A stretch of 64,000 nt of DNA from Eubacteriales bacterium (GCA_045543015.1 JAZQLY010000033.1:32293-96292), one strand, 5' to 3'; counted from the first letter of the stretch, positions 15,969 to 32,267 are shown. Made by a program: numbers and translations. The notes: generated by a model not told the origin, from the sequence alone.

Positions 15969-15983
15969 AAAACGGAGGTATAT

Positions 15984-17577: not shown

Positions 17578-17594
17578 CCTACTTCCCTCCTATT

Positions 17595-18716
17595 TTATCC
17601 CTCGTAGCGAGATGCAATTTTGGCAAGATAATTTCGAACGTCAATATGCTGCGGGCAGCGGCTTTCACAATCGCCGCAGCCAATGCAGGCAGAAGCAGGC
17701 GCAGCATGGTCACACAGTACTGCGTATCGCTTCTTCTCCTCGGCGCCTGCATCCCCCTCCTGGTGGCGCTGCAGATCCTCGTTATACAGAGCAAAATACT
17801 GCGGGATGGCAATGCCCTGCGGGCAATTTTCTGTACAGTAGGAGCAGCCCGTGCAAGGGATGGCGATCTGCCCGTTGATCACATCAGCGGCGGTATGTAC
17901 CATGGCGATCTCGCTCTCTGAAAGCGGAACGAGATCCGCCATGTAGGAGATATTATCCGTCACCTGCTGCATGGTACTCATACCGCTGAGCACCATCATG
18001 ACGTTTGGCAGGCTTGCCGCAAATCGGATAGCCCAGGAGGAGGGCGAGAGCTGCGGCTCACTTGCGCGGAACATGCGTTCAACCGCCGGTGGCACGTTGG
18101 CCAGAGCACCGCCCTTAACAGGCTCCATTACGATAACGGGAACGCCATGCTTGGTGGCAACCTCATAGCACGCGCGGGACTGCACGCCCTCGTTCTCCCA
18201 ATCCAGGTAGTTGATCTGCAGCTGAACGAAATCCAGATCCGGATGCTCGGTCAGTACACGGTCAAGCAAGGCGGGGCCACCGTGAAAGGAAAATCCGATA
18301 TGCCGGGCAAGCCCCTTCGCCTTCTTATCTTGCAGCCAGGTAAAGCAATCGAACTGCTCAAAGACCTGAATGGTCTCATCATCAATGCAGTGCAGGAGGT
18401 AATAATCAAAATACTCAACGCCGGTTTTCTGCAGCTGGTCGGAAAACACGGTGTCGCGCGCTTCTTTGCTTTTGATCATGTGCGGCGGCAGCTTTGTTGC
18501 CAGGGTGTAGGCATTACGCGGATAACGGCTGACAAGGATCTCCTTTGCGGCCGTTTCGCTCTTGCCGTTGCAGTACATATATGCCGTATCAAAGTAGGTA
18601 AACCCCTGTGCAAGGAACGCATCTACCATCTGCTTTGCCAGCTCGATATCCACGCTCCCCTTATCATTTTGATCAAGCAAGGGCAAGCGCATCAAACCAA
18701 AGCCTAATTTTTTCAT
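17595..18716 (-). CDS. Aldo/keto reductase with C-terminal 4Fe-4S domain
   Basis: LGFGLMRLP, YFDTAYMY, YYLLH, MEPVKGG, CTGCSYC...CP and CIGCGDCESRCP. Own promoter TTGCAC-17-TATAAT (18774-18746). Confidence 0.92.
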   Translation of the reverse strand: MKKLGFGLMRLPLLDQNDKGSVDIELAKQMVDAFLAQGFTYFDTAYMYCNGKSETAAKEILVSRYPRNAYTLATKLPPHMIKSKEARDTVFSDQLQKTGVEYFDYYLLHCIDDETIQVFEQFDCFTWLQDKKAKGLARHIGFSFHGGPALLDRVLTEHPDLDFVQLQINYLDWENEGVQSRACYEVATKHGVPVIVMEPVKGGALANVPPAVERMFRASEPQLSPSSWAIRFAASLPNVMMVLSGMSTMQQVTDNISYMADLVPLSESEIAMVHTAADVINGQIAIPCTGCSYCTENCPQGIAIPQYFALYNEDLQRHQEGDAGAEEKKRYAVLCDHAAPASACIGCGDCESRCPQHIDVRNYLAKIASRYEG

Positions 18717-18794
18717 GACCGGTCCCCCTTTTTTCTGTTTTCTTTATTATAGCATATTGCAGAAAAAAGTGCAACCCAATTCCAAAAAGAACGC

Positions 18795-18830
18795 AAAAAC
18801 CGTGAATGGGAAATCCCATTCACGGTTCTT
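18795..18830 (-). terminator. Terminator of the carbohydrate ABC operon
   Basis: aaccgtgaatggg-aaat-cccattcacggtt with flanking T tracts. Confidence 0.8.
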
Positions 18831-18877
18831 TTGCATGTCAACCTTGCCGCAATCAAAGCGGCAGGAAAAACACAAGA

Positions 18878-19915
18878 TCAACCAACGATACCGGAACGCT
18901 CGATACCCTGGATCAAGTATCTCTGACAGAAGAGGTAAATGATAACCAGCGGTGCCATGATCAACAATGCACATGTATTGTGGATGGCGGAATAGAACAA
19001 GCCCTGGCCGGGGTAGTTGGTAACCAAGGAGGGCGGAACCGAAACGATATTCGGCATCAGCCACTTGGCGTTACGGCCACTGTAGAACAGGGTCGTATAG
19101 AAGTTATCCGTCCACTGCCAAGAGAAGGAGAGGAGGAAAATGGTGATCATCATGGGGATCGACAGAGGCAGAATGATCTGCAAGAAGGTTCTGTAAACGC
19201 CGGAACCGTCTACGTATGCCGATTCCTCCAACTCATCCGGCACGCCGGCAAAGAACTGGCGCATCATGAAGATGAAGAGACCGTTCTTGAATGCAAGGCC
19301 GGTCAGCGACAGCATCATCAGCGGAACGTCGGTATTGGTGAGCTGCAGCGTACCACCCGTGATCAGGTTGATAATGCCGAAAACGTCAAAATACCGGAAG
19401 TGCTGATAAAGCGCGAGCTGAATCGTACGGTGAGGGATGATCATGGTCAAGACCACGAAGAGCATGATCAGCTTGCTGCCACGGAAACGGAATTTCGCAA
19501 GACCGTAACCAACAACACAGCAGATCAAGGTCTGCAGAACGGCACAGGTCAAGGAAAGGAAGGCGGTATTGACGAATGCCTGCAGATAATTGTTCTCCAA
19601 GATGATGGCAGCATAGGTATCCAGCGTCCAGTTCTTGGGGATCATTCGAACGGTAACGTCTACGAAGTCCTCCATGCCCATGAAAGAACCGAAGATCTTT
19701 GCAATGAACGGGAAAAGAATAACGTAGGAGATACCGATCAGCAGCACCAAACGAACGATGTACCACACTACCTTTTGAAGGAAGAAAGTAGAAAGGAACT
19801 TGGCCTTCAAGCGTTGCAGGAGCGGTGTGCGCTCAAACTCAACACGAATTTTGTTTTTGGTTTCTTTTAACACCTTAGAGGCAACGGGAGCCTCCGGAAT
19901 GTGATTCGCGTCCAT
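18878..19915 (-). CDS. Carbohydrate ABC transporter permease (MalG-type)
   Basis: Multiple TM segments; EAA loop ELEESAYVDGS; YGLAKFRFRG. Confidence 0.92.
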   Translation of the reverse strand: MDANHIPEAPVASKVLKETKNKIRVEFERTPLLQRLKAKFLSTFFLQKVVWYIVRLVLLIGISYVILFPFIAKIFGSFMGMEDFVDVTVRMIPKNWTLDTYAAIILENNYLQAFVNTAFLSLTCAVLQTLICCVVGYGLAKFRFRGSKLIMLFVVLTMIIPHRTIQLALYQHFRYFDVFGIINLITGGTLQLTNTDVPLMMLSLTGLAFKNGLFIFMMRQFFAGVPDELEESAYVDGSGVYRTFLQIILPLSIPMMITIFLLSFSWQWTDNFYTTLFYSGRNAKWLMPNIVSVPPSLVTNYPGQGLFYSAIHNTCALLIMAPLVIIYLFCQRYLIQGIERSGIVG

Positions 19916-19932
19916 TCTTTTTCCTCCTTTCC

Positions 19933-20955
19933 TTAAGCATCACGCTTCTGATAGAATACGTATGCAGAAGCGATACCCATAAATGCAGCGATGATCAAAA
20001 TGATCAGCAAGAAGTAGACCCACGCCATAGCGGTTGCAAGCACCGTCTCCGAGTTGCTATAAATGCCATTGATATACGACATGACCGTATTCGAGGCACT
20101 TGTAAAGGAGTCGATGATCGTGTACAGCGCGTTAACCAGGATCATGGGGCTGATCATCGGGAAGGTGATCTTCCAGAACGTTTCCCAAGCGGTAGCACCG
20201 TCGATCGTACAAGCCTCATAAATAGAGGGCGAGATGGACTGCAAGCCAGCAAGGAAGATCAGGATCTGAACGCCGGAACGGTTTACGATATTATAAATAT
20301 CGTTAACCAGGTCTACGATATAGGTAACAAGCTCTGTACCTACCTTCATGTTGGCGAACAGACGTTGAATATCCACCGCATTGATGATCTGGCTGGATGC
20401 ACTGGAGCCGGAGCCATCGTTAATACCGCCGTTTTGCATGTTGTCTACCATGGCGTTATTTACGTCAATGGCATCGATCAGACCGGTAGAAAGAATAACC
20501 GGGATAAAGAAGATCGCACGGAATGCGGCACGGCCGAACATCTTCTGGTTCAAAACTACTGCAACAAAGAGCGAGAAGATAACGATCGCGGGGATATCAA
20601 AGATCAGCTGCTGGATACCGCCGACAAGCGTTTGCACGAACTTCGTATCAACGAACAATGCCTCGTGGTAGTTTTCAAAGCCTACCGGGTTCATGACGGT
20701 ACCTGCAGTCCCGTTCGGAAGTCGAACGGGCTGCAGATCGCAGAAGCTAAGCTGTAACGAAGAAATAACAACGGGGACGTAAATGAAGATCAGACCGAGC
20801 ACGAACGGCAGAACAAATACCCAACCAGCTCTTGCCTTGCGCTTTTCAAGAGACCCGGAGCCTTTGAAGAAGGCGAGTATTTTTTGCCAAATAGAAGTCT
20901 TTCCCTTCTCTGCGGAAGAGAGCGACAGGTTCTTTTCTGTAACGGAATTATTCAT
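19933..20955 (-). CDS. Carbohydrate ABC transporter permease (MalF-type)
   Basis: VGFENY, FRAIFFIPV, LAGLQSIS, IYEACTIDGA, FWKITFP. Confidence 0.92.
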   Translation of the reverse strand: MNNSVTEKNLSLSSAEKGKTSIWQKILAFFKGSGSLEKRKARAGWVFVLPFVLGLIFIYVPVVISSLQLSFCDLQPVRLPNGTAGTVMNPVGFENYHEALFVDTKFVQTLVGGIQQLIFDIPAIVIFSLFVAVVLNQKMFGRAAFRAIFFIPVILSTGLIDAIDVNNAMVDNMQNGGINDGSGSSASSQIINAVDIQRLFANMKVGTELVTYIVDLVNDIYNIVNRSGVQILIFLAGLQSISPSIYEACTIDGATAWETFWKITFPMISPMILVNALYTIIDSFTSASNTVMSYINGIYSNSETVLATAMAWVYFLLIILIIAAFMGIASAYVFYQKRDA

Positions 20956-20967
20956 GTTCTCTCCTCC

Positions 20968-23900
20968 TTACTGTTTGATCAGTTGATAGCCGTACGGCTC
21001 AATGGTGTATACCGTACCGTTCATTCTTACCTGTACCGTATAGATGTTATAGTTCAGAATGAAGGAGGTTCCGCCCTCATAGCTTACCATAACGATCATG
21101 CCGTCATCCAGGGTGTACTTGGTCTTTACGTAGTCATCACCATCTGTGGCCTCAGACTCTGTGGTCAGAATAGCACCCTGCTCCAGGATCTCACGGATCG
21201 CCTCATCATCGGCTACCGCATCGATCACCTCACCGGCAGTGATCTCGCCGTTTGCAAACTTTTCACGGTACTCTGCCAGCTGCTGCTTCTTGGCAGCGGT
21301 GGTGGCAAGAGCCTCCGCCTTTGCCCAAGCGGCATCCATCTTGGCAGCATCCTGCTCACGCTCTGCGTCCGTAGGAACGCGCTCGCCGATCAGGAAGCCG
21401 TGGTCAACGATCTTCTTGGTCTGCAACGTGCCGATAGCATCGTTTACACGATTATACACGTCAAAGAGCTCACCGGTCTTGATCAGATTGCCATCCTTAT
21501 CAAAGTTACCGGCCCAGATCTTGTAGTTGACCGAGTAGTACTGGCTGAGGAATTTATCCTCCTTCAACAGGCTGGTGTTATCATACGAAAGCGTGAAGTA
21601 GATGCCTGCACCACTCTCGATCGCCTTCAATACCTGGTAATTGACGTTACCGGCCATATTGATGGCAGAGCCTGCGAAGTTCACGTAACCGTGCAGAACC
21701 ATACCAACGAACGGAACGGCGCGGCTTGCGCTTGCGAAGCGCGAGCTGTCTACTGCGGCATTGAGCAAATGCTCGGTATACGCCAGAGCGTAAATGTTAC
21801 CGCCGGAGGTCATAACGGAGCCGTTATAATCGGTATGCAGCTGCTTAAAGATATCGGTGATGATGGTCTTTGCCTCATCACGGTTGGTGGGATTCTTCTT
21901 ACCGAAGTCAGAGTTCAGATCGCTACCGAGCGTACCAACAGAGATACCGATAGGATCAAAGCTCTTGAACTTCTTAGCAAACTTTGCGTAGTATTCCTCG
22001 ATCATGGAGGGCGTTACGCAGATCTCGAAGTAGGATACGAACTCCTGATACGTCGCATCGTATACGCGACGGTTAGAATAACGGTTATCGATCGTGCGGG
22101 CTGCCGCCTTCTTCAGGTTGATACCGTCAAACAGCTTTCTGTTGGTGATATACATGAAGTCGAAGTCCGGATATACGCCGAAGCCTTCCTTCTCTGCTTC
22201 CTCAAGCAGGCTTTCAAAGCCGCGGTCGCCACCGACCTCCTTCATCCACTTCAGCTTGTTCGGGTACAGGTAATTCATACCATCATTGGCAAAGCCGGTC
22301 AGCTTGAACTGGACGTTGGTAATGCCATTCGCGGAAAGATCAGCATACATGCGCTTCACGTCATCAAACGTGGTAAGCGGCACATCCACATCGATCGGAA
22401 TGGAGAGGATTCTCTCGATATCCGGAACGGTACCAAAGCTCTCGATATACAGCGGGATGTTCTTTTCGTCTGCTACCGTCAAGGCGGAGAGCAGGCCTGC
22501 TACGTCAGTCAGATAATGTCTGTAGGCGTTTGCCATGCCAACGTAGGTAGCATCAAATCCCTTATCGCTGTTCTTGTACTGATCAGACAGCATATAGATG
22601 CGCATCTTATAGCTGCCAGTGTACTTACGGGAGGACTCTACCGTCCAGGACGAGCCGGAGCCAGAGGAAGAGGAATCTCCGGAAAGATCGTAGGTATCCT
22701 TCGGACGCGGATAGAAGGTGGTGTATACAGAGGCCATTGCATGTCGGCCACCACCCCAGGATGCGGTGATGTTCGCCATGGCGTCACCCTCTTCCAGGAT
22801 GGCGAGATAACCGCCAAGCGACTTCTTTGTGGTCGTTACCTCATTCCCCTCCGCATCAACCGCCGTCTCGGTGGTCGTCAAACCGCTGATGGCACCGAAC
22901 ACGGGCATGCGAATGGTCTCAGAGATCGTACCGGGGATCTGGTGGTAGGCATAGTCCGTACCGTAGACCTTACCAGGAATACTACCGGATTCCTTCTTCA
23001 CCAGGTCTTCATAATACAGGATCGCACCGCTACCGTCCGGGTAGAACAGATAGCCATCCTCATTCATGTCACCTGCGCCAAAGTACTGCAGCGGGCTGAC
23101 ATACTCCAGCGTGTAAAGCGAATAATCGAAACGGATACCGTTTGCGGGGAGACGGATCGTCAGGCCCTCGCTTGTAAGCGTGTATTCCAGGGCCAGCTTG
23201 AAGAGCGGCGGATCCAGCTCCTCCGAGGTGTACTCGGTCTCGGCATGGTCCTTCTCCATCTCTTCATAGGTGTAGTTCGGACAATAGGTCTTAATGTAGT
23301 TCTCCAGCATGCGCTTATCACGCGCAGTAGACTTGGAGCGAACGTAGATACCCTTCTGCAGCTTCTGCAGAACGGGATAAGCCTTCAACACATCGTTGAA
23401 CGCGCTCTCACCCAAGATTCGGTTACCCTCTGCATCGGTAGCGAACGGATCGATGGGGGTATAATAGGACAGGAACTGTCTCAGGTTATACGCATCGGTG
23501 TCCCCTTCCGGGAAAGGATAGTTGTAGATGTCATTCCAGGTGTAGCTCGGCAGGCCGGGATACATGATACTAAGGATCTGGCTGACCATACGGTCAATGG
23601 TGATACTACCGGGGGCCAGATAGTTTGCATCCTCACGGCCGAGTGCATACTCAACACGGATGCCCTGCTTGATGTTCTTGACCTTGATCTGACCACGGGC
23701 AGCAGCCTCGGTATAGCTGTTGTATACCTTGCTGTTGCCGTTTTCAATAAAGCCAAGCACGATCTGAGACATCAGCTCTGCGCGGGTCTGGTCTGTAACG
23801 GTCATGGTGGGCGTGTTCTCGATCTTATAGGGGTTCGACAGCAGGATCTGACCGGTAACGGTATCCTTTACGCCGATCTCACCCGTATAATCGTTTACAT

Positions 23901-24192
23901 ACAGCTCAAACTGGCCGTACTTTGCGGCAAGACGCATGTTCTCATCGCTTTGGAGTTTGTCTTCGGGGCTTTCGTAGTTCGTGCGGATCGCAGCTGCTAC
24001 GATCTCAACGTACGGTTCCTCAACGATCTCGCCGGTGCCATCACCGGTCGTGCCGTCGCCGGTCGTTGTATCCCCTTCCGTTGTGGTATCAGCCGCCATA
24101 ACGGTACCGGGCATGGTACAGAAGACACCGAAAGATCCAAACGCCATCAACAATGCAAGCATCATTGACAATATTCTCTTTTTCATTTTCAT
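20968..24192 (-). CDS. Large secreted DUF5696-type protein
   Basis: Signal peptide, T/G/D-rich linker, GYLFYPDGSGA, YGTD, RMPVFG, VPFVGMVLHGY motifs; sits between the YIP1 gene and a permease pair. Confidence 0.75.
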   Translation of the reverse strand: MKMKKRILSMMLALLMAFGSFGVFCTMPGTVMAADTTTEGDTTTGDGTTGDGTGEIVEEPYVEIVAAAIRTNYESPEDKLQSDENMRLAAKYGQFELYVNDYTGEIGVKDTVTGQILLSNPYKIENTPTMTVTDQTRAELMSQIVLGFIENGNSKVYNSYTEAAARGQIKVKNIKQGIRVEYALGREDANYLAPGSITIDRMVSQILSIMYPGLPSYTWNDIYNYPFPEGDTDAYNLRQFLSYYTPIDPFATDAEGNRILGESAFNDVLKAYPVLQKLQKGIYVRSKSTARDKRMLENYIKTYCPNYTYEEMEKDHAETEYTSEELDPPLFKLALEYTLTSEGLTIRLPANGIRFDYSLYTLEYVSPLQYFGAGDMNEDGYLFYPDGSGAILYYEDLVKKESGSIPGKVYGTDYAYHQIPGTISETIRMPVFGAISGLTTTETAVDAEGNEVTTTKKSLGGYLAILEEGDAMANITASWGGGRHAMASVYTTFYPRPKDTYDLSGDSSSSGSGSSWTVESSRKYTGSYKMRIYMLSDQYKNSDKGFDATYVGMANAYRHYLTDVAGLLSALTVADEKNIPLYIESFGTVPDIERILSIPIDVDVPLTTFDDVKRMYADLSANGITNVQFKLTGFANDGMNYLYPNKLKWMKEVGGDRGFESLLEEAEKEGFGVYPDFDFMYITNRKLFDGINLKKAAARTIDNRYSNRRVYDATYQEFVSYFEICVTPSMIEEYYAKFAKKFKSFDPIGISVGTLGSDLNSDFGKKNPTNRDEAKTIITDIFKQLHTDYNGSVMTSGGNIYALAYTEHLLNAAVDSSRFASASRAVPFVGMVLHGYVNFAGSAINMAGNVNYQVLKAIESGAGIYFTLSYDNTSLLKEDKFLSQYYSVNYKIWAGNFDKDGNLIKTGELFDVYNRVNDAIGTLQTKKIVDHGFLIGERVPTDAEREQDAAKMDAAWAKAEALATTAAKKQQLAEYREKFANGEITAGEVIDAVADDEAIREILEQGAILTTESEATDGDDYVKTKYTLDDGMIVMVSYEGGTSFILNYNIYTVQVRMNGTVYTIEPYGYQLIKQ

Positions 24193-24203
24193 ATCTCCTA
24201 TAC

Positions 24204-26375
24204 TTAGACTCGGTAAGAAAGCTCGGTATAAATCGACGTAACGAAGGACAGGATCTTACCAAGCAGACTTGTAAACAGAACGGCAACGAACATGATAACT
24301 GCCATCGCAACGATCGTACCGATCGTGGTGGTGATCGTCTTGAACATCGAATAATCGTGCGTTACCATCATGCCAAAGAAGATGAGGAACGCTGCCCAAA
24401 CGAACGAGATCGTAACAAGCAAGGAAACGATCTGCGCCTCTTCAAGCGCCACAACGTTGGAAAGTGCGGTGGAGATGATCAGGAACAGCGGCATAGGTGC
24501 CAATGCGTAGCCGCATGCGATGATGATATCCTTCAGGCTGCCCTCGCCGTCAAACAGTGTGGTCAAGCACCAGTTGGAGATAGACCACAGCAAAACGGGA
24601 ACGAGAACGGCGATCAACTGTACGAGGATGGTAGAATACTTTTCCTCAGGATTCATCAGATAACCGGTACCAACCGATTGATAGAAGAAGGCGATAATGA
24701 CCAGCGCAATGATGGTCAGTGCGGCACGCATGGAACCGCGTTTTTCGTGCTTCAGATCCCAGAAGCCATCGAACGGATGGAAGACGAGATGGAAGGAATA
24801 CATCAATTCACGCCAGTAGGTCCTCTTACCGCGGGAATGTGCCGTCTCGTAGTTCAGCTTCTTTGCGTACTTCATGAAGAAGGACCATGCAACGCAAAGA
24901 ACAACGATCACGATCGGGATCCAAATGAAGTAATCAGCGATCCAGACCTTACGGATCTCCTGATACGATTTCGAATAGTAGGTCGTTTCATAAGCGGCAC
25001 GCAGGTATTCCATAGCACCCTCATAATCCGACTCACTGTAAAGAGCCTTACCGATACCGATGTAGGCGGTATCAAAGTTGTTGTTACGCTGCAGAACAGC
25101 CTCCCAACGCTCGATAGCCTCACCGTAAAGACGGTTATTCTCGCACGCCAGCGCGTCGATCAGCAGATCGCCGTACTCGGTACGCTCATAAACCGTAAAG
25201 GTATCTGCATCTACGTCCAGAAGAAGGATGTAGTTCCCCTGGTAAGCCATAGAGCCTGCCTTGGTCACGTTACCGAGCAGCTTACCCTCGTCACCAAAGG
25301 CAAACAGCAGGTTACCGTTGGAATCGTAGGTAAAGATCTTACATCTGTTCGGGTCAACGATGGACCAGGTACCCTCCGGTCCGATAGCCACGTCAACGAT
25401 ACGGGAAACGCCGGTGTGATTGTCACCCGTTCTCTTCATCTTGACGTTTACTTCTCCACCCGGGTCAAAGAAGCCGTTACGCTTCATGATCTCATCACCG
25501 GCGGAGTTCAGCTTCTTGACAGGAGAGTAGGATGCATCCTTGCTGTCAATAGAAGCCAGCTGGCTGGATTCATCGATCGAATCGTTGGTTACGTAAATGA
25601 AGCCCTCTTCATCGATCGAGATATTGTTGAAGGATACGGGGATGTAAGACTCGCTCTTTTTACGCTGCTCCTTGCTCTGGAAGCGGCGCCAGATGATCTG
25701 CAGAATATCGTATTTAACCTTCTGCGCACCGATAAAGCCGTTGAACGTACCCTCGTCATCCATAACGATAACACCCTGGTTAGTCGTCTGGGAAACAACG
25801 TAGATACGGCCGTACTGGTCAACTGCCATAGCAACGGGCTGGTAGATCGCATCCTCACCAAACAAGGCAGATTCCGGCTGTTCGATCGTTTTCACGAATT
25901 CGCCCTGTCTGTTAAAAACAACGATACGGTTATTGTTGGTATCGCAGACGTAGATGCGGCCTGCTTCGATCAGCATACCGGAGGAGCTGTACTTATCCTC
26001 GGTTACGAATACACCCTGGGGTGCATCAAAGGAATCGTGAACGCCATGCTCGTTGATAAAGGTATCAATGACGAAGTCCAGCTTGTAGAACTCGGTCATG
26101 ACGATCACGCGGTTACCGGTCTTATCGACCAGGTAGACCTTATTTTCGTGGTCTACGTGGAGGTCAGCAGCCTCGTCCCACTTTGTCTCAAGCCCTACCG
26201 TCTTGTAGTCTACCGTCATGGTAGGCGAATACGCAGCAGGAGAATAGAGAGCAAAGCCATCGGGAGAGTAGGTATACGTTGTGTACGGCTCGATCGCCGA
26301 CACAGGCATTGCTGCGGAAAACACGGTAATCATACAAAGAAGAAGGAGCATGAAGCTTACTATTTTCTTTTTCAT
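24204..26375 (-). CDS. NHL-repeat beta-propeller / TPR / YIP1-family membrane protein fusion
   Basis: Signal peptide; NHL-like repeats (YLVDKTGNRVIV, YVCDTNNNRIVVF, PVAMAVDQYGRIYV); TPR-like helices; C-terminal multi-TM HPFDGFWDLKHEKRG...TTLFDGEG. Confidence 0.8.
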   Translation of the reverse strand: MKKKIVSFMLLLLCMITVFSAAMPVSAIEPYTTYTYSPDGFALYSPAAYSPTMTVDYKTVGLETKWDEAADLHVDHENKVYLVDKTGNRVIVMTEFYKLDFVIDTFINEHGVHDSFDAPQGVFVTEDKYSSSGMLIEAGRIYVCDTNNNRIVVFNRQGEFVKTIEQPESALFGEDAIYQPVAMAVDQYGRIYVVSQTTNQGVIVMDDEGTFNGFIGAQKVKYDILQIIWRRFQSKEQRKKSESYIPVSFNNISIDEEGFIYVTNDSIDESSQLASIDSKDASYSPVKKLNSAGDEIMKRNGFFDPGGEVNVKMKRTGDNHTGVSRIVDVAIGPEGTWSIVDPNRCKIFTYDSNGNLLFAFGDEGKLLGNVTKAGSMAYQGNYILLLDVDADTFTVYERTEYGDLLIDALACENNRLYGEAIERWEAVLQRNNNFDTAYIGIGKALYSESDYEGAMEYLRAAYETTYYSKSYQEIRKVWIADYFIWIPIVIVVLCVAWSFFMKYAKKLNYETAHSRGKRTYWRELMYSFHLVFHPFDGFWDLKHEKRGSMRAALTIIALVIIAFFYQSVGTGYLMNPEEKYSTILVQLIAVLVPVLLWSISNWCLTTLFDGEGSLKDIIIACGYALAPMPLFLIISTALSNVVALEEAQIVSLLVTISFVWAAFLIFFGMMVTHDYSMFKTITTTIGTIVAMAVIMFVAVLFTSLLGKILSFVTSIYTELSYRV

Positions 26376-26389
26376 TCTCTTCCCTCCTC

Positions 26390-27265
26390 TTAGTCTTTCA
26401 TACCACTGGAGCCCATCGTCTCGATGATACTACTCTGGGCAACGACGAATACGGTGATCGGCACGATCATCATAACAACGGTTGCAGCCGCGCCGGCACC
26501 GGCACGCGCAACACCGCCGCTGACGATCTGCTGGATCGCATAGTTAAAGGTCTTCAGCTGCTCGGACTGGATGTAGACCGAGGCACCGGTGTTCCAAAGT
26601 CCCTTAAAGGACTCGATGATCAGCGTCAGCCATGCAGGCTTAACCATCGGCATGGCGATGACCAGGAAGGTCTTGAACTCGCTTGCACCGTCCAGACGCG
26701 CACTCTCCAGCACGGCATCGGATACAGAAGACTCCATGAACTGCTTCATCAGGTACAGACCCATCGTGGTAGCCAATGCGGGAATGATGATCGCCCAATA
26801 GGTATCGACCATGCGCATCGTGGTCAGAATGATGAAGTGGGTAACCTGGTTAACCGTCTGGTGGAACATCAGCGAAAGCACGATGATCTCGAACATCCAT
26901 TCACGGCCCGGGAACTTCAGCTTTGCCAGGGCGTATGCCGCCATAGAAGCAAGGATCAGGTTACCGAAGGTACCGGCTGCGGTAATCAGCACGGTATTGA
27001 AGATGTAACGGGAGAACGGAACCCAGGACGTGTTCATCAGCGAGAACAGGTCGGAGAAGTTCTCCAGCGTAGGGTTGGTTACGTAGAAACGCGGCGGGAA
27101 CATCCACAATTCATCCAGCGGCTTCAAGGACTGCATGATAACGTAAAGCATCGGCAGGAACATGAAAGCGCCCATCAGGATGAGGAAGAAGGAAATACCT
27201 GCGTCACCACCTGCAGAACGGTTCAGGACAACCTTATGATTTCTTGTTCTTAGTTTTCTTGCCAT
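26390..27265 (-). CDS. Carbohydrate ABC transporter permease (MalG-type)
   Basis: SLKPLDEL, YALAKLKFPG, VLESARLDGA, MPMVKPA. Confidence 0.93.
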   Translation of the reverse strand: MARKLRTRNHKVVLNRSAGGDAGISFFLILMGAFMFLPMLYVIMQSLKPLDELWMFPPRFYVTNPTLENFSDLFSLMNTSWVPFSRYIFNTVLITAAGTFGNLILASMAAYALAKLKFPGREWMFEIIVLSLMFHQTVNQVTHFIILTTMRMVDTYWAIIIPALATTMGLYLMKQFMESSVSDAVLESARLDGASEFKTFLVIAMPMVKPAWLTLIIESFKGLWNTGASVYIQSEQLKTFNYAIQQIVSGGVARAGAGAAATVVMMIVPITVFVVAQSSIIETMGSSGMKD

Positions 27266-27266
27266 C

Positions 27267-28214
27267 TTATTGTCCTACCTTTGCAAGTGCTTTCTTGATG
27301 ATGATGTTACTGCCTACCATGATAATAAACAGTACAACCGCGATAGTGGAGGAATAACCTACCTCAAAGCGCTGGCCGCCATAGTCATCAAGATGGTGCA
27401 TGATGGTGTGTGCGCAATAGTTAACAGACGGGAGGCCTGCCAGTGCCGTAACAACGCTACCGAAACCGAAGGACTGGGTAATAGCAAGCACCGCACCGAA
27501 CATCAGCTGCGGGCGCATGGTCGGCAGCGTGATGTACCAAAGCTCTTGCCAACGGTTACGGATGCCATCAACGGCGGCAGCCTCAAAGAGGCTCTTATCG
27601 ATCGTCTGCAAGCCCGCGATAAAGGCAAGGAATGCAGTACCGAGCGACGTCCACAATGCTACAATGCAGCAAAGCGGCATGATGTAGTCCTCGTTCTGGA
27701 ACCACAGGATCGGTGAGTCGATGATACCCAGCTCCATCAAGGTACCGTTGATCCAACCGTAGGAGTCAGAGGAGAACAGGATACCCCAAACCATGTACAC
27801 ACCGCCCGAGATAGAGGGTGCATAGAAGATCAGCGTAACAACTGCACGGACCTTGGGAGGTAGCTCGTTGATAAACCACGCGATCAAGAAGGAAAGCAGG
27901 TAAGATACCGGGCCGGTAATGGCCGCGAAGATCAGTGTGTTCTTACATGCGAGGATGAAGATCTCATCATCGAGGAACAGACGAACATAGTTTTCAAAGC
28001 CAACCATCTTCGGCCATTCCAGCAGGTTAAACTCAGTAAAGCTGAGGAAAATCGAGAATACGACCGGGAATACAGTAAACACGAAGAACAGCAGCATAAA
28101 GGGCGCTACCATGATGTAGGCCGTCTTATTGCGCTTCATCTCTTTCCATGTCCACTGCCACTTGGTCATGTCTTTACGCGCCACCGGGCGCGTGACTGCC
28201 TCATTCTGTGACAT
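27267..28214 (-). CDS. Carbohydrate ABC transporter permease (MalF-type)
   Basis: VGFENY, FYAPSISG, LFEAAAVDG, WYITLP; GTG start. Confidence 0.93.
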   Translation of the reverse strand: MSQNEAVTRPVARKDMTKWQWTWKEMKRNKTAYIMVAPFMLLFFVFTVFPVVFSIFLSFTEFNLLEWPKMVGFENYVRLFLDDEIFILACKNTLIFAAITGPVSYLLSFLIAWFINELPPKVRAVVTLIFYAPSISGGVYMVWGILFSSDSYGWINGTLMELGIIDSPILWFQNEDYIMPLCCIVALWTSLGTAFLAFIAGLQTIDKSLFEAAAVDGIRNRWQELWYITLPTMRPQLMFGAVLAITQSFGFGSVVTALAGLPSVNYCAHTIMHHLDDYGGQRFEVGYSSTIAVVLFIIMVGSNIIIKKALAKVGQ

Positions 28215-28252
28215 TCGTTTTTCTCCTTACAAAGATTTGTTTACCTATCGGC

Positions 28253-31200
28253 TTATTTATTATTAATGTAGGAAAGCGTTGCATCCGAGAAGCCGAAGCC
28301 GGCAAGCTCTTCTGCATCCAACCCACGCAAGTACTTCAAATAAGCCTCAATTGCTTCGTCTACCAAGGCGATCTCCTGTTCCTTGCTGGAGGTTGCCTTG
28401 TCAGCCAAAACGGGCAGCTCAAATTCCTCACGTTTTCTGGTAATTTCTTTATTGATCGTCTTGACATAGCCCTTCAGCTGCTCTACGGGGTCAGCACCGT
28501 CATTGTAGGAGTTGAGGAAGGCGAAGTTCAGATAACGGTCAATGATGTATGCACCGGGGTAGTTGGGAATAGTAGCCAGGTTGTTATACTGTGCATACAG
28601 ATTCTCATACTCCTCTGTCGTCCAGGACATCTTGAAGAGTGCTTCTCTGTTTGCCGTGTTGTACTTAGCGGAAGGACCGATCAAGGCAACCATGCTGTTA
28701 CCGTAGGATGCCTGCACGTCCGCGCTGACCTGCCACTTCATGAAGCGCCAGGAGGCGGCTGCATCATCTACGCCGTTCATCATAACAACGGCATTGACAC
28801 CGGCGATAGAAACGCTGGAGATGGTGCCATCCGACCGTTCGGTGCCGGGTACGTTGGTAAACATCCACAGACCGCGGATCTCGGTTGCGAATACGGTCAA
28901 CTGGTTGTACATACCAACTGCATCAGCAATGACCAGCGGCATTTCACCAGTACGGAAACGGTTTGCCGCATCATAGGATACGGGGAAGCTGTAGTCGGTA
29001 TAGAAACGGGTCATGTAGCGGAAGGCGTCCAGCGCTACGTCCTCATCATACGAGATCTCCATGTAGTCGAAGTACGTCGCAAAGGTATCATCGCTCATCA
29101 GATCTGCATACTTCGTACCGGCGTACTGTGTACCATCATAGGTCCAACGGTCGCCACCTCTCTGATAGTGGAAGAGGTTGTAGTCTCTTGCCAGACCGAT
29201 CTCCATGTTTGCAGCCTGGAAGACAGGCACGCAGGTGAGCAGGTCATCCCACGTCTGGGGAACGTCAAGGCCGAGGTTTGCCAGCGCATCCTTCCGGTAG
29301 AACATCATCGAGAAGGAAACCGATTCAGGAACACCATAGATCTTATTATACATGCTGAGAGGAACCAGGGTCGCTTCATTAAAGTCCTGCAGAGCCAGCT
29401 GAAGGTCAGCCTTATGCTCTGCGGTGCCCGGGTAATCATCCAACGGGAGAACCGCACTTCTGATCGCGTAGTTGATAACGCTACCGCTATCAAGACCTAC
29501 GTATACGTCCGGGCCCTGCTTTGCCAGTACCGAAGGCAACAGCGTACCGCCGGCAACCAGCTTCAGGTCAACGGCAATACCCTCACCTACCGAGGTAGAG
29601 CTGAAGGACGAGTCGACCAGGGAACGCCAGATGCTTGCCTGGTCACGGCCGGTGGCCAGCCACACCTCAACACGGGTGCGATCAGCGTTTTCCTCCTCGG
29701 TAACGGTAACACCCATCTGGTTGTAGTCTACGAAGAAACTATTAAAGAAGGAAGAAATTTCAAATCCGATCGCCTGGAAGAAGGTCGCATCTACACGATA
29801 CTGCTCATCCAGCACAACGTCAAAGGTCTTATCATAGGTGCTGTTGCCGGAACCGCTTACCACGATGTAGTCCATCATCAGCGACTGCTGCTTCGAGGTG
29901 TTCAACCACGTACCCAGCGTACCGATATAAGACTTCAGGTCATCCAGGTTCTCGGCGATCTTATCCTCCTCCGAGCCCATGACGTCAAGCAGGTATGCAA
30001 CCTTATCCAGCGTTGCAACGTGCGCACCCTTGGAGCCGGAGAGGTTGGTCAGCAGCTCCGAAACTGCGTACAGGTTGAGAGACTCCTTATACAGCGAACG
30101 AACCGTAGCCGGCATAACGCGGCCAAAACGGTAGTCACGGTATTCATCAGGCTCTGCACCGGTCAGCTTCAGAATATCCAGATAGCAATCGTTGATAACG
30201 CCAAGCGATCTTTCTACCTCTTCAATAACCGTAGAAAGCGTACCCAGGCTTACCTCCAGGGCAAGCGTGTAGGTCTCGCCTTCCTCAAAGTAGAACTGGA
30301 AGACATTGTCGCCATCGCCAAGCGTTGCGATCTGCCAAGCCTTGTCATAATCAAAGCGGGCATTATATGCCTCGGCAAACGGAACGTCCAGCGTGTCACC
30401 GTAGATACCGCCGGCCAAGCGAACCGCGCGGGAGGTGTACATACCGGCCAGCTTATCCTGCTTGCAACGAACCGAAATGGTGTAAAGACCAGTCTCGGTT
30501 ACGGTGAAGCGGTAGCTTGCCCACTGCCCTACCGTATCGTAGCTGTTGCTACCCAGCACGTTCAGCAGCTGTGCGCCGGAGGAGGTAGGAGAGTTGGCAG
30601 CCGAGGTACGGTCATTTGCTGCGTATACGGAGGTATCCGAAACGCGATACGGTGCCTCTGCCTCAATGCGGATGCTGGCATCCTTGCCTGCAGCAGGATA
30701 CTTGGCAGCCTTGTATTCTGCCAGCACATCCTCGTACGATTTGAGCTCATCCACCGGGAAAAGGCGGATAGACTTAATGGCCATCGCCTCTCTCGTGCTT
30801 TGCAGCGCGATGGTATGAAGATCACCGTTCTTGCCGCTGTTATCGAAGTAGAACTCAAAGGCCCCCTGATAGAAGCCGTTCGGATCGGAGAACGTATAGG
30901 TCTTCCACTCCGGAGAAACGACCGCATTCGGCTTCAGCTGGTTGCCGTTGATATCCTCACGGAAGATGGGGTGACCGTTTTCGTTCAGGCTGACACCGTT
31001 CAGATCCGGCGTAACGCCCTCAGATGCGGTATACTCATACTTCCAGGTCTTGGACATCGTCAGATATCTCGCCTGCGAGAAGGGCACCTTACCGTCAAGG
31101 TAGAACATACGCTCGATGGAAGAGGCGGTCTCGCCAAGCGGATAATACTCGATCTCAATGCCGTAGCGGCCGGATGCAGGAATGGTCACCTGCCATGCAA

Positions 31201-31591
31201 GCGTACCGCTGGTAGGAGAAAGCAGCGAATGAACGCCGCCGTACTCACCGAACGACACTGCCAAATCATTGGCATCAACTGTCACCTTCTCTCCCTCTTC
31301 GCCGAGGTAGTAGAAGGCGTTGACCGCCGCATCGTAATAGTAAGTTGTCTTACCGTCCGAATAGGAGTACAACTCCTTTGCGTCGATCTCAACTGTTTCA
31401 GTTCCCTTCACATTCGGCTGTTTTCCAATGTACACCGAATAGGAAGAGGCATTCAACAGCTCGCGCAATTCCTCAATGGTGGATGACACAACGCTGCTTG
31501 CGGCGGCCGAGCCCGACACGCCGAAAAGACCGCAAAGCATCATGACCGCAAGGAAGAGCGCGATAGTGCGGATGAACCTGGTTCTCTTCAT
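28253..31591 (-). CDS. Very large extracellular solute-binding protein (family 1 SBP C-terminal domain plus N-terminal beta-sandwich domains)
   Basis: Signal peptide; C-terminal SBP motifs GPDV, MMFYRKD, VPQTWDDL, FRTGEMPL, WRFMKW; 1112 aa; GGAGG RBS. Confidence 0.85.
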   Translation of the reverse strand: MKRTRFIRTIALFLAVMMLCGLFGVSGSAAASSVVSSTIEELRELLNASSYSVYIGKQPNVKGTETVEIDAKELYSYSDGKTTYYYDAAVNAFYYLGEEGEKVTVDANDLAVSFGEYGGVHSLLSPTSGTLAWQVTIPASGRYGIEIEYYPLGETASSIERMFYLDGKVPFSQARYLTMSKTWKYEYTASEGVTPDLNGVSLNENGHPIFREDINGNQLKPNAVVSPEWKTYTFSDPNGFYQGAFEFYFDNSGKNGDLHTIALQSTREAMAIKSIRLFPVDELKSYEDVLAEYKAAKYPAAGKDASIRIEAEAPYRVSDTSVYAANDRTSAANSPTSSGAQLLNVLGSNSYDTVGQWASYRFTVTETGLYTISVRCKQDKLAGMYTSRAVRLAGGIYGDTLDVPFAEAYNARFDYDKAWQIATLGDGDNVFQFYFEEGETYTLALEVSLGTLSTVIEEVERSLGVINDCYLDILKLTGAEPDEYRDYRFGRVMPATVRSLYKESLNLYAVSELLTNLSGSKGAHVATLDKVAYLLDVMGSEEDKIAENLDDLKSYIGTLGTWLNTSKQQSLMMDYIVVSGSGNSTYDKTFDVVLDEQYRVDATFFQAIGFEISSFFNSFFVDYNQMGVTVTEEENADRTRVEVWLATGRDQASIWRSLVDSSFSSTSVGEGIAVDLKLVAGGTLLPSVLAKQGPDVYVGLDSGSVINYAIRSAVLPLDDYPGTAEHKADLQLALQDFNEATLVPLSMYNKIYGVPESVSFSMMFYRKDALANLGLDVPQTWDDLLTCVPVFQAANMEIGLARDYNLFHYQRGGDRWTYDGTQYAGTKYADLMSDDTFATYFDYMEISYDEDVALDAFRYMTRFYTDYSFPVSYDAANRFRTGEMPLVIADAVGMYNQLTVFATEIRGLWMFTNVPGTERSDGTISSVSIAGVNAVVMMNGVDDAAASWRFMKWQVSADVQASYGNSMVALIGPSAKYNTANREALFKMSWTTEEYENLYAQYNNLATIPNYPGAYIIDRYLNFAFLNSYNDGADPVEQLKGYVKTINKEITRKREEFELPVLADKATSSKEQEIALVDEAIEAYLKYLRGLDAEELAGFGFSDATLSYINNK

Positions 31592-31729
31592 GAAAAATTC
31601 CTCCTAGAAAATTTCGAGGCACTGCCCCAAGACGTAACAATTCGCGCGCTGCAATGCAGCACCAAAGCAACCCCTTTGCCCCTACAAATACAAAAGGGCA
31701 AAAAAACGCCTATGAATTATTATAGGAAT

Positions 31730-31758
31730 ATCTTAACACAAAACACGCAAAATGTCAA
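31730..31758 (-). promoter_or_regulatory. Strong sigmaA promoter of the ABC operon
   Basis: TTGACA-17 bp-TAAGAT with extended -10 TG; implies a ~130-nt leader. Confidence 0.8.
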
Positions 31759-32226
31759 GCAAAAAAAAGCTTACCTGGCATGCCGCAGCACGGCAAAAAA
31801 GCATTCCTCCGCCCCAGCGGCGAACGCCGCGTAGTGGCAAAACCGCCCTCTGTCGCCGAGGCCGTTTTTTCTTAACAATTCCAAACGGCAAAATGTAATT
31901 GGTTTTTACATTTTATCGCCATTTTGTGCCTTGTTTATATGTAAATTTAAGTTCAATGTAAATTCTTTTTACTTTTTGCGTACAAAAAGCGGTTTTATTT
32001 TGTTCACACTCTGTTTTTGTTTATATGGTAAAGTTGCACAAAAAAATCAGAAAAATTTCTACACATCGACAATTTCGGATTTTTGCTTCTCAAGGCAAAA
32101 ATCATCCTAAAAATGGAAAATTCTTCTTGTTTTTTCCATTTTTGCAATGACGAGCCACTTATGCAAGCCACAAAACCGGGCGTTTGCGCGAGCAAAAGCG
32201 CAGGCAAAGAATGTGGGCAAAATGGA

Positions 32227-32260: not shown

Positions 32261-32267
32261 AAAAGCG

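Follow-up and report, generated by a model that had tools for sequence, protein, structure and literature searches.

A conserved and widespread seven-gene cassette carries two CUT1 permease pairs, a GH129-like protein and an NHL-Yip1 protein

The window analysed here is the whole 64,000-nucleotide stretch of DNA from an Eubacteriales bacterium. It contains a cassette of seven minus-strand open reading frames (ORFs) at 18878-31591, bounded by a single promoter-like site and a single strong terminator. The ORFs are separated by 1 to 38 nt, in line with the seven tightly packed genes of a preliminary description of this DNA. The features, from the promoter-like site to the terminator, are as follows.

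31730..31758, minus strand: promoter-like site, TTGACA, 17-nt spacer with TG, TAAGAT (10/12 matches)
28253..31591, minus strand: SBPL, 1112-aa giant solute-binding protein (model pLDDT 76; 5ysb profile match)
28403..29683, minus strand: family-1 solute-binding protein (SBP) domain of SBPL, residues 637-1063 (fold comparison and profile search against 5ysb)
27267..28214, minus strand: P1F, MalF/UgpA-type CUT1 permease of pair 1, 315 aa (UgpA 63.6 bits, below the equivalog cut-off)
26390..27265, minus strand: P1G, MalG/UgpE-type CUT1 permease of pair 1, 291 aa (Pfam, NCBIfam)
24204..26375, minus strand: YIP, 723-aa membrane protein (Pfam Yip1 57.9 bits, NHL, TPR_16)
24288..24791, minus strand: Yip1 domain of YIP, residues 529-696 (Pfam)
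20968..24192, minus strand: DUF5696 protein, 1074 aa (Pfam DUF5696 442 bits; model pLDDT 80.8)
19933..20955, minus strand: P2F, MalF-type permease of pair 2, 340 aa (Pfam; EAA loop)
18878..19915, minus strand: P2G, MalG-type permease of pair 2, 345 aa (MalG 61 bits, below the equivalog cut-off; EAA loop)
18795..18830, minus strand: intrinsic terminator, hairpin with a 16-pair stem (7 GC), a 4-nt loop and a T-run

Both the one promoter and the one terminator described previously have a counterpart here, the former as a promoter-like site with 10/12 matches and TG; taken as a class, however, sites resembling the promoter consensus were no more frequent than in shuffles (8 found versus 13.7 expected). 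An AGGAGG ribosome-binding site lies about 130 nt downstream of the promoter-like site, immediately 5' of the ATG at 31591. Contigs from four metatranscriptome runs (three studies) covered the operon at 92-99% identity, and one of them starts at 18825, i.e., at the terminator; 31626-32226 was uncovered by contigs in all four runs. These data hint only weakly at transcription of the operon, as contigs cannot show a transcript and DNA may be present in RNA libraries.

All four permeases carry a BPD_transp_1 domain (Pfam) and EAA loops read from the sequence (EAAAVDG...ITLP in P1F); every one of them scores far below any NCBIfam equivalog cut-off. The earlier assignment as a carbohydrate-uptake operon is supported. 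Sugar importers of the CUT1 family (TC 3.A.1.1) in Gram-positive bacteria, which share an MsmX/MsmK ATPase, are represented by MalEFGK2 and the MsmX-dependent systems of Bacillus subtilis. The cassette resembles them in its MalF/MalG-type pairs with EAA loops, in having a family-1 SBP domain and in relying on an ATPase whose gene lies elsewhere, but differs in having two permease pairs and two fixed accessory proteins in one operon. A scan of the seven ORFs with Pfam found no ATPase or regulator gene, as previously noted. A candidate MsmX-type ATPase (406 aa, ABC_tran and TOBE_2 domains) is encoded on another contig (C8) than that of the operon.

SBPL is a family-1 sugar-binding protein that is tethered to the membrane and carries additional domains in its N-terminal part. 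Its N-terminus is a single membrane helix (residues 7-25, the one TM segment in a TM scan) and lacks a canonical lipobox; beta-sandwiches (about 120-280 and 300-450), a four-helix bundle (452-567), the SBP domain (637-1063) and C-terminal helices follow. An hmmscan of SBPL against Pfam gave no SBP match. A profile search of solved structures matched the C-terminal part to 5ysb, a beta-1,2-glucooligosaccharide-binding protein (E 8.7e-32), fold comparison aligned 369 residues of the SBP domain to it (Z 35.1, rmsd 2.6 A), and a six-frame search with PF01547 gave 61 bits in the same part. The N-terminal part matched only unnamed clusters in the Atlas. SBPL thus departs from the usual CUT1 SBP in its size of 1112 aa, its two beta-sandwiches and helical bundle, and its anchoring by a TM helix instead of a lipid.

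The DUF5696 protein is a distant relative of GH129 glycosidases. A signal or anchor helix at the N-terminus and a linker rich in Thr, Gly, and Asp precede a first beta-sandwich, a (beta/alpha)8 barrel and a second beta-sandwich at the C-terminus; the helix would tether it to the surface, and lipoboxes are found in two homologues. We compared it with the alpha-N-acetylgalactosaminidase NagBb (5wzn) and the 3,6-anhydro-D-galactosidase ZgGH129 (5opq, 8rzk). The whole three-domain GH129 architecture is present (Z 28-29, 570-586 residues aligned), with E 1.7e-23 and a VIA-align Z of 29.1 over 585 residues for 5opq and a Z of 28.4 for 5wzn, about 10 above GH101, GH36, and GH13. A profile of 62 DUF5696 sequences matched ZgGH129 (E 2.5e-14) and NagBb (E 8.7e-10). 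Unlike GH129 enzymes, the protein shares only about 14% identity with them, belongs to Pfam DUF5696 and not Glyco_hydro_129, has about 400 extra residues and is surface-tethered. Because it keeps the whole GH129 architecture, it looks like the enzyme of the system rather than a substitute for a binding protein. This does not bear out two earlier proposals, namely that the operon has no recognisable glycosidase and that the DUF5696 protein, which has no SBP fold, may take the place of an SBP as partner of the second permease pair. A second DUF5696-like protein in this genome scores above the Pfam cut-off for GH101 and weakly, below the cut-off, for GH129.

Whether the protein still hydrolyses glycans was judged from four candidate acidic residues (D413, D762, E807, and E859). 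Among the 62 sequences, D413 is conserved in 59, D762 in 53 and E859 in 55, whereas position 807, which would fit the acid/base, holds D or E in only 35, and 9 sequences have N, S, H or Q instead of D762; no carboxylate pair was invariant across the 62, although faults in alignment or ORF calling may explain the residues missing from some sequences. In the catalytic half of the barrel, no solved glycosidase, GH129 included, was matched by sequence, such that its strands cannot be aligned to GH129 by sequence and the catalytic residues cannot be mapped. These features, and the occurrence of the cassette in loci of many specificities, would fit a non-catalytic descendant of a GH129-like enzyme that binds or gates glycans at the surface. 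We consider this unlikely, though deserving of weight, given that the entire enzyme architecture is kept and that D413, D762, and E859 are retained in 85-95% of sequences despite a mean column identity of only 17%. In addition, D762 may fall at the GH129 nucleophile position, as interpolated between aligned anchors and not superposed.

YIP begins with a signal peptide, followed by an NHL-type beta-propeller outside the cell, TPR repeats, a single TM helix and, at the C-terminus, a Yip1 bundle to which a TM scan assigned about five TM segments. Two separate genes replace the fusion in 41 of 80 public loci, one encoding the ectodomain with one TM and the other a five-TM Yip1 protein. The YIP1 fusion had been proposed to act as a membrane scaffold, which is consistent with docking of the Yip1 domain on P2F/P2G in a three-chain run (ipSAE 0.58; runs 0.57, 0.60, and 0.58; best control 0.06), with a partner pLDDT of at least 71 and agreement between runs on at least 97% of contacts. 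The verdict of the docking tool was "weak support": 58 of 80 solved complexes attain its mark, as do 2 of 110 mismatched pairs, but only 7 of the 80 do so at 0.60 or below, along with both of these mismatched pairs, and our run, which used its own alignments, differs from the calibration setup. The Yip1 domain of YIP may contact P2F/P2G. YknW of the B. subtilis YknWXYZ system is a bacterial Yip1-family ABC accessory protein. By description, YIP is like YknW in having a Yip1-type membrane bundle within an ABC transporter operon; however, YknWXYZ is a MacB-type exporter, and YknW lacks the propeller/TPR ectodomain.

The preliminary description had left it to be seen whether the seven-gene order is conserved. 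It was intact in 15 of 16 loci of relatives, the 16th being cut by a contig end, and 66 of the 80 public loci were contiguous; of the others, one had two genes inserted, one had a large gene after P2F and 12 were cut by contig ends, with no different gene order in any of the 80. Given this strong conservation, the earlier proposal does not fail on gene order. P1G is the most conserved cassette gene (41-85% identity to orthologues). The 80 loci are from Clostridia, Paenibacillus, Acholeplasmataceae, and Treponema, with gut and soil bacteria among the carriers. At least 571 cassette loci were confirmed among 185,579 species genomes, and 81 of 300 genomes from the class had a DUF5696 score above the cut-off. 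Genes near cassettes elsewhere encode GH43, GH10, GH26, GH36, GH20, GH3, GH78-like, and GH127-like enzymes and AraC regulators.

A published counterpart appears to be the xylan degradation locus (XDL) of Caldicellulosiruptor (Anaerocellum) bescii, with the operon xloEFG-X-GH129-axoFGE from Athe_0174 onward (PMC8579813; PMC12285236). Matched by published names and order alone, it has an SBP, two permeases, a hypothetical gene, a "GH129", two permeases and an SBP, the eight-to-nine-gene form of distant cassette loci; unlike the window, it has a downstream SBP (axoE) and xylanases. The operon is reported to be induced on xylan and Avicel (PMC8579813), and its transporters use a separate msmK ATPase (PMC8579813; PMC12285236). 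The passages of these papers on the locus describe two transporters, do not discuss X and GH129 as parts and give no mechanism (PMC8579813; PMC12285236). It could be argued that such a cassette exports or assembles surface polysaccharide, as the operon has no cytoplasmic catabolic enzyme and its three large proteins are all extracellular. We regard this as extremely improbable: the TMDs are those of type I importer permeases with EAA loops and are accompanied by an SBP domain, the cassettes of relatives lie among glycoside hydrolases and AraC regulators, and the counterpart in C. bescii, matched by gene names and order, is described as xylan-induced.

Co-divergence was measured in 66 cassette copies, the window's and those of 65 loci, from partial correlations between pairwise distances with 999 permutations, in a set whose related sequences are not independent. 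High values were obtained for P1F-P1G (0.50) and SBPL-P1F (0.26), and for P2F-P2G (0.47), YIP-P2G (0.41), DUF-YIP (0.38), and DUF-P2F (0.37), each reached in 0/999 permutations. Values across the two groups were mostly -0.26 to 0.04, with weaker links for SBPL-YIP (0.22, 0/999), SBPL-P2G (0.15), SBPL-DUF (0.14), and YIP-P1G (0.14). The pattern recurred in the close (24) and distant (42) subsets. Judged by divergence, the cassette appears to be built of a module A {SBPL, permease pair 1} and a module B {NHL-Yip1 protein, DUF5696, permease pair 2}, in keeping with the earlier suggestion that DUF5696 and YIP go with the second pair; the pattern could also reflect repeated recombination at the P1G/YIP junction and not co-adaptation. 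Another account, in which two ordinary, independent sugar importers are merely co-transcribed and YIP and DUF5696 do a separate job, e.g., cell-wall or capsule turnover, would accord with the C. bescii work, where the flanking genes are treated in the passages concerned simply as two CUT1 transporters (PMC8579813). This is very unlikely in our estimate, as YIP and DUF5696 always lie between both pairs, in Clostridia, Bacilli, Acholeplasmataceae, and Spirochaetes, and their divergence follows that of P2F/P2G specifically, not that of P1G, which adjoins YIP.

The second permease pair had been described as lacking an SBP, a view the wider set of loci does not favour. Of 50 distant loci, 34 have an ordinary SBP next to the cassette, either downstream of P2G (25) or upstream of SBPL (9) but never on both sides; only 1 of 30 close loci has one, and the window has none. 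This SBP co-diverges with P2G (0.30, 0/999) and YIP (0.35) and not with module A; even when located upstream of SBPL it still co-diverges with P2G (0.57, 1/999, n=9). Three orphan lipobox-bearing proteins of about 510-535 aa in this genome, two on contig C51 and one on C38, are matched by a profile of the adjacent SBPs (E about 1e-27; by hhalign, probability 99.5% and E 1.3e-22), and a search of both contigs found no PF00528 permease match. Given the adjacent SBPs elsewhere and these three homologues, the second pair may well use an ordinary SBP encoded elsewhere, probably one or more of the orphan lipoproteins. Among relatives, however, the presence of such lipoproteins does not follow that of the cassette: matches (E<=1e-10) occur in 13 of 41 genomes, one genome has them without DUF5696, and many cassette-bearing genomes have none. 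Because the genome is 85% complete, the SBP and ATPase counts are floors.

The absence of an adjacent ordinary SBP from 29 of 30 close loci and from the window invites the proposal that all seven proteins form one surface supercomplex, Sus-like in a monoderm, in which DUF5696 on a Yip1 scaffold feeds P2F/P2G directly with no classical SBP. P2F/P2G are nonetheless conserved (53-66% identity within the genus) and co-diverge with DUF5696 and YIP, and the weakly supported Yip1 docking would also fit, as would an insertion of about 60-75 aa after the third hydrophobic segment of P2F, present in all P2F aligned, absent from standard UgpA-type permeases and presumably an extracytoplasmic loop. P2G has an N-terminal extension of about 50 aa. 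We find the supercomplex quite unlikely, since DUF5696 has a glycosidase architecture and not an SBP fold, the ordinary SBP co-diverges with P2G where present, and homologues of it exist in this genome. To our knowledge, no type I ABC importer functions without an SBP.

Collectively, we favour, with a probability of about 0.65, an operon of two CUT1 translocons in two modules, with YIP and DUF5696 as companions of pair 2 and the ATPase acting in trans. In module A, membrane-tethered SBPL would work with P1F/P1G: at the cell surface, the beta-sandwich domains probably capture a polymer or long oligosaccharide, which the SBP domain would hand to the permeases. In module B, P2F/P2G would act with two fixed companions: the surface-tethered, GH129-like DUF5696 protein most likely trims the captured glycan extracellularly, and YIP, its propeller/TPR ectodomain set on the Yip1 bundle, probably flanks P2F/P2G as an accessory subunit. 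The SBP of module B would be the ordinary adjacent lipoprotein in other lineages and here, in trans, probably at least one of the three orphan lipoproteins; an MsmX/MalK-type ATPase encoded elsewhere would power both translocons. The proposed logic of co-encoded surface binding, surface cleavage and import is shared with the Sus-like systems of Bacteroidota, but here there is no outer membrane and no SusC or SusD homologue, import is through ABC translocons and the likeness is functional only. We regard the cassette as a real, widespread and unstudied variant of CUT1 glycan importers.

Lastly, the absence of mirror-frame stops noted previously was evident over the three large genes, which are overlain by stop-free antisense frames of 1136, 1096, and 763 aa. 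TTA, CTA, and TCA codons together are scarce in the cassette (8 of 4200, versus 6.4 per 1000 in open frames of at least 400 aa in the genome). Such frames are not confined to the cassette but are common in other parts of the window too, with 33 overlapping pairs.

The seven genes are best read as a two-translocon CUT1 glycan importer with a tethered giant solute-binding protein (SBPL), a GH129-like surface enzyme (DUF5696) and a propeller-Yip1 accessory protein (YIP). They form seven head-to-tail ORFs with gaps of 1–38 nt, at exactly the coordinates assigned to them in the preliminary description. An AGGAGG site lies 5' of the first ATG, that of SBPL. The permease genes are designated P1F/P1G (first pair) and P2F/P2G (second pair).

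Features of the operon (window coordinates, in order of transcription)
31758-31730, minus strand: promoter-like site, TTGACA / 17 nt with TG / TAAGAT (motif match)
28253-31591, minus strand: SBPL, ORF of 1112 aa
27267-28214, minus strand: P1F, ORF with BPD_transp_1 (Pfam)
26390-27265, minus strand: P1G, ORF with BPD_transp_1 (Pfam)
24204-26375, minus strand: YIP, ORF with NHL, TPR and Yip1 (Pfam)
20968-24192, minus strand: DUF5696, ORF with DUF5696 at 442 bits (Pfam)
19933-20955, minus strand: P2F, ORF with BPD_transp_1 (Pfam)
18878-19915, minus strand: P2G, ORF with BPD_transp_1 (Pfam)
18830-18795, minus strand: 16-pair terminator (hairpin)

The flanking genes are unrelated to the operon; they encode a pyridine-nucleotide disulphide oxidoreductase with a rhodanese domain, a thioredoxin, a Crp-type regulator, an aldo/keto reductase, glutamyl-tRNA synthetase and a histidine kinase. 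At window 14166-16289, the oxidoreductase-rhodanese fusion is 600 aa long, the thioredoxin gene follows directly, and the Crp-family regulator is on the opposite strand. No regulator gene adjoins the operon. The motifs TTTACAT and ATGTAAA are repeated in both orientations at window 31800-32270, within an AT-rich intergenic region of ~680 nt upstream of the promoter, and they could be operator sites. Rfam returned zero families at gathering score across window 17000-33000; thus, no known riboswitch or leader is present there. The operon is covered at 92–99% identity by contigs of four metatranscriptome runs on pig and bovine gut, which come from three studies. One contig, of 3258 nt, begins at 18825, inside the terminator, and extends through P2G and P2F into DUF5696. 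The stretch 31626-32226, upstream of the promoter, has no cover in any run, and uncovered stretches are not evidence. The depth of RNA contigs can neither rank genes nor show a single transcript. Since no contig can demonstrate a transcript, we take these data as only a weak hint that the operon is transcribed.

The operon represents a cassette that is widespread and strictly collinear. Its own genome (2.05 Mb, 72 contigs, 85% complete; the window lies on contig C33) belongs to a set of 41 relatives, 30 of which, this genome counted, contain DUF5696. Fifteen of 16 neighborhoods fetched from the relatives hold the full seven genes in the same order, and the 16th ends at a contig edge; in one relative (G026), DUF5696 is matched six times and no fewer than two complete cassettes are present. 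We then scanned species-representative genomes with a P1G alignment as the query and confirmed at least 571 cassette loci, the best 80 of which were taken for comparison of gene order. The seven classes are contiguous and in the same order in 66 of these 80, contig ends interrupt 12, and a deviating order was found in none, which bears out the similar gene orders in other Bacillota mentioned in the preliminary description. The best 80 comprise metagenome-assembled genomes labeled Clostridia, Oscillospiraceae, Lachnospiraceae, Ruminococcus, Acholeplasmataceae and Treponema/Spirochaetales, together with Paenibacillus species, Thermobacillus xylanilyticus and Alkalibacterium iburiense. In an even draw across the class, 81 of 300 genomes have a DUF5696 match over the cut-off; together with the at least 571 loci, this makes the cassette common.

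Individual copies vary in content. In locus L104 (16358-19941), two genes of 343 and 837 aa are inserted between P2F and P2G, and in locus L111 (16181-20858) an ORF of at least 1559 aa follows P2F and reaches the end of the stretch. Some copies have much longer DUF5696 genes (1719 aa in L044, 1993 aa in L061, 1317 aa in L087) or YIP genes (991 aa in L037, 997 aa in L060), which presumably carry added domains.

The seven proteins fall into two groups by co-divergence. From the pairwise distances of each protein across 66 cassette copies (65 loci and the window), we obtained partial correlations in which the mean distance of the remaining five proteins was controlled for. The first group, module A, consists of SBPL, P1F and P1G (P1F-P1G 0.50, SBPL-P1F 0.26, SBPL-P1G 0.21), and the second, module B, consists of YIP, DUF5696, P2F and P2G (P2F-P2G 0.47, YIP-P2G 0.41, DUF-YIP 0.38, DUF-P2F 0.37, YIP-P2F 0.36, DUF-P2G 0.31). 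These within-module values were matched by 0–7 of 999 label permutations, counts that are not probabilities because related sequences are not independent. Most cross-module values range from −0.26 to 0.04 (DUF-P1F 0.02, DUF-P1G −0.03, YIP-P1F 0.03, P1F-P2F 0.00, SBPL-P2F −0.26), and YIP-P1G reaches only 0.14 although the two genes are direct neighbors. SBPL has weaker links across the boundary: SBPL-YIP 0.22 (0/999), SBPL-P2G 0.15 and SBPL-DUF 0.14. The same pattern emerges when the 24 close copies and the 42 distant ones are analyzed apart, and simple decay with gene distance in the operon does not account for it. Both co-adaptation inside each module and recurrent recombination where P1G meets YIP are compatible with it; under both readings, the cassette comprises two functional units. 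The preliminary description suggested that DUF5696 and YIP belong with the second permease pair, and these data agree, in that both proteins co-diverge with P2F/P2G and not with P1F/P1G.

All four permeases pass the PF00528 cut-off (29–40 bits vs 26.4), and have UgpA, UgpE, MalF and MalG as their best NCBIfam relatives. All four contain EAA-type loops; therefore, both pairs should dock an ATPase. A MalK/MsmX-type candidate of 406 aa (ABC_tran 126 bits, TOBE_2 30 bits) is encoded outside the operon, at G000:C8:15736-16956 of the same genome. It is the only full candidate of this type found in this 85% complete genome and lies inside another CUT1 operon. A 631-aa ABC protein adjoining locus L018 was considered as the missing ATPase and rejected as an exporter-type fused protein. 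Of the four CUT1-type permease pairs found in this 2-Mb gut genome, two belong to the cassette.

The model of SBPL (pLDDT 76) consists of one N-terminal helix, two beta-sandwich domains, a four-helix bundle and a solute-binding domain at residues 637-1063. This domain superposes on the sugar-binding protein 5ysb with Z 35.1 (rmsd 2.6 Å, 369 residues) in a fold comparison and matches it by profile at E 8.7e-32. In a six-frame search of the genome, window 28709-29581 within SBPL scored 61 bits for PF01547 and 58.5 bits for PF13416, unlike hmmscan of the whole 1112-aa protein, which listed no SBP family. SBPL thus supplies the family-1 extracellular SBP expected of a CUT1 importer. It has no canonical lipobox, and its relatives carry a long N-terminal helix that looks uncleaved, so SBPL is likely held by a transmembrane tether. 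For residues 36-570, an Atlas search returned unnamed clusters only, the nearest named cluster (0.77) being at chance level; Golvesin_C was rejected for the N-terminal part (Pfam 18 bits, under the cut-off of 31.6).

The DUF5696 protein matches Pfam DUF5696 (PF18952) at 442.4 bits (cut-off 25.6) over residues 310-932. Its model (pLDDT 80.8) resembles GH129 enzymes along its whole length (Foldseek E 1.7e-23) and has their architecture of an N-terminal beta-sandwich, a (beta/alpha)8 barrel and a C-terminal beta-sandwich. VIA-align gave Z 29.1 for 5opq (rmsd 4.0 Å, 585/658 residues) and 28.4 for 5wzn, compared with ~19 for GH101 and 17–18 for GH36 and GH13. A profile of 62 DUF5696 sequences matches ZgGH129 at E 2.5e-14 and NagBb at E 8.7e-10. 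PF11308 (Glyco_hydro_129) had no match in the protein at E<=0.01. By sequence, we regard it as a distant relative of GH129 and not a member, and the earlier statement that the operon has no recognizable glycosidase gives way to a glycosidase-like component. Three acidic residues are conserved among the 62 sequences (D413 in 59, D762 in 53, E859 in 55); D762 is the candidate nucleophile, and position 807, the likely acid/base, is D or E in only 35. The catalytic half of the barrel is not alignable by sequence to solved enzymes: a 62-sequence profile of residues 660-905 found zero glycosidases in the PDB, only HtrA1 at the chance level of E 0.12. The DUF5696 protein is extracellular; the copy here has a signal or anchor helix followed by a Thr/Gly/Asp linker, and the copies in loci L062 and L094 have lipoboxes. 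A second, shorter DUF5696-like protein of 627 aa is encoded outside any cassette at G000:C44:27568-29451 (L002:847-2730); in Pfam, it matches GH101 above the cut-off, also DUF6259, and GH129 weakly, below the cut-off. A similar class of ~570 aa, covering DUF5696 profile positions ~190-603, recurs in many genomes of the class.

YIP comprises a signal peptide, an NHL propeller, TPR repeats, one transmembrane helix and a Yip1 bundle (PF04893, residues 529-696, 57.9 bits vs a cut-off of 28.6). A transmembrane scan gave about five hydrophobic segments past residue 550, and three to five in split Yip1 proteins; we read the Yip1 part as a five-helix bundle. In 41 of the best 80 loci, YIP is split into two genes, the first encoding the signal peptide, the ectodomain and one transmembrane helix and the second a five-TM Yip1 protein. 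We predicted a complex of P2F, P2G and YIP residues 470-723, using one alignment for each chain. The ipSAE values were 0.57, 0.60 and 0.58, as against 0.06 for the best of three controls, with partner pLDDT of at least 71 and at least 97% contact agreement between runs; when P2G was swapped for an unrelated protein, the score fell to 0.06. Of 80 solved complexes, 58 pass the mark for this score, as do two of 110 mismatched pairs, and the verdict of the tool is "weak support"; among those passing, a score of 0.60 or less was seen for only 7 of the 80 solved complexes and for both mismatched pairs. The prediction therefore makes it only modestly more likely that YIP serves the second translocon as an accessory subunit.

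The operon has one SBP gene for two permease pairs, and the preliminary description proposed that DUF5696 replaces the SBP of the second pair. This is probably wrong. An ordinary SBP of ~450–520 aa adjoins the cassette in 34 of the 50 more distant loci: in 25 it is the next gene downstream of P2G and in nine the next gene upstream of SBPL, never on both sides; the 30 close loci have one in only a single case. Across 33 loci, this SBP co-diverges with P2G (0.30, 0/999) and YIP (0.35, 0/999) and not with SBPL, P1F or P1G (−0.03 to 0.10). Even in the nine loci where it lies upstream, beside module A, it still tracks P2G (0.57, 1/999), which speaks for its membership of module B. In the genome of the window (85% complete), a Pfam-based search found only three CUT1 SBPs, namely SBPL and two that each have their own permease pair. 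A profile of cassette-adjacent SBPs finds three further, orphan homologues at E ~1e-27 (hhalign 99.5%, E 1.3e-22, 374 columns).

Orphan SBP-like lipoproteins in the genome of the window (profile and hhalign)
G000:C51:1463-4592 (L112:1463-3070, L112:3063-4592): two in tandem
G000:C38:9716-11335 (L113:4714-6303): one

All three are ~510–535 aa long with lipoprotein signal peptides, and their neighbors are housekeeping genes (MetH and MTHFR; Lgt). No permease match is present on their contigs, and Pfam, NCBIfam and PDB sequence searches returned nothing useful for them. The family is heavily expanded in some relatives of ~2 Mb (30 matches in G029, 16 in G036, nine in G006), and its distribution relative to that of the cassette among the 41 relatives is not clean (13/41). 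These lipoproteins are plausible candidates for SBPs that would serve the cassette in trans.

In the mechanism we propose, module A would join the tethered SBPL to the first translocon, and module B would ally the putative GH129-like surface enzyme and the propeller-Yip1 accessory protein with the second, which in this clade is probably served by orphan SBPs; a shared ATPase would energize both. A tighter arrangement, which we consider unlikely, would make P2F/P2G, YIP and the GH129-like protein one machine. The Yip1 part would sit on the translocon and the propeller/TPR ectodomain would hold the enzyme over the channel, so that cleavage and import are coupled without a classical diffusible SBP, the cassette-linked ordinary SBP having been lost in the clade. 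If true, a type I ABC importer would here be fed in a new way, and monoderms would have a true counterpart of Sus-type complexes. The Sus-like systems of Bacteroidota polysaccharide utilization loci use a SusC-type TonB-dependent transporter and a SusD-type lipoprotein, whereas the transport genes of the cassette encode ABC permeases; no match to SusC/SusD-type families was found among the seven proteins in Pfam and NCBIfam.

Housekeeping genes surround the cassette in this clade, and neighbors in the same genus give no clue to the substrate. Elsewhere, its neighbors include GH43, GH10, GH26, GH36, GH20, GH3, GH78-like and GH127-like proteins, CBM35 and AraC regulators, and it is found in loci for xylan, mannan, galactosides and other glycans. 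From these varied neighborhoods, we conclude that it is a generic glycan-uptake platform with varying specificity. A search for DUF5696 in the literature library used here found no paper, and one for Yip1 with an ABC transporter, a solute-binding protein and a glycoside hydrolase found nothing related. A regulon reconstruction of Caldicellulosiruptor bescii (PMC8579813) places the operon xloEFG-X-GH129-axoFGE-xynF... in the xylan degradation locus Athe_0174-0185; this operon is upregulated on both xylan and Avicel, and its products are given as a pair of CUT1 transporters together with CAZymes, msmK being encoded elsewhere. Its published order, compared by gene names only, equals that of our distant loci, and we therefore take it to be the same cassette. 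Parts of other reports describe measured binding of XynR to the operator of this operon (PMC12285236), a response of the C. saccharolyticus XDL transporter genes Csac_2412 and Csac_2417-2419 to xylan-rich biomass (PMC5658599), and a "GH129" in the Paenibacillus O199 proteome on cellulose only (PMC4867992). The accessible portions of these four reports do not present X and GH129 as transporter parts. If YIP and DUF5696 turn out to serve an ABC importer as accessory subunits, they would add a new layer coupling surface depolymerization to uptake in Gram-positive fiber degraders, and a new glycoside hydrolase family would probably be established as well. Because some carriers are in culture and genetically tractable, this can be tested directly.

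The preliminary description also remarked on stop-free mirror frames over the genes, and rightly so: antisense frames of 1136, 1096 and 763 aa run over the large genes. They arise because TTA, CTA and TCA codons are nearly absent, the three together making up 8 of 4200 codons in the cassette vs 6.4 per 1000 genome-wide. The window contains 33 overlapping pairs with frames of at least 200 aa, the cassette being only the most extreme case; the mirror frames are a genome-wide effect of TTA/CTA/TCA avoidance and not peculiar to the operon. Examples beyond it lie at window 48937-50280, 54556-55494 and 61648-62979.
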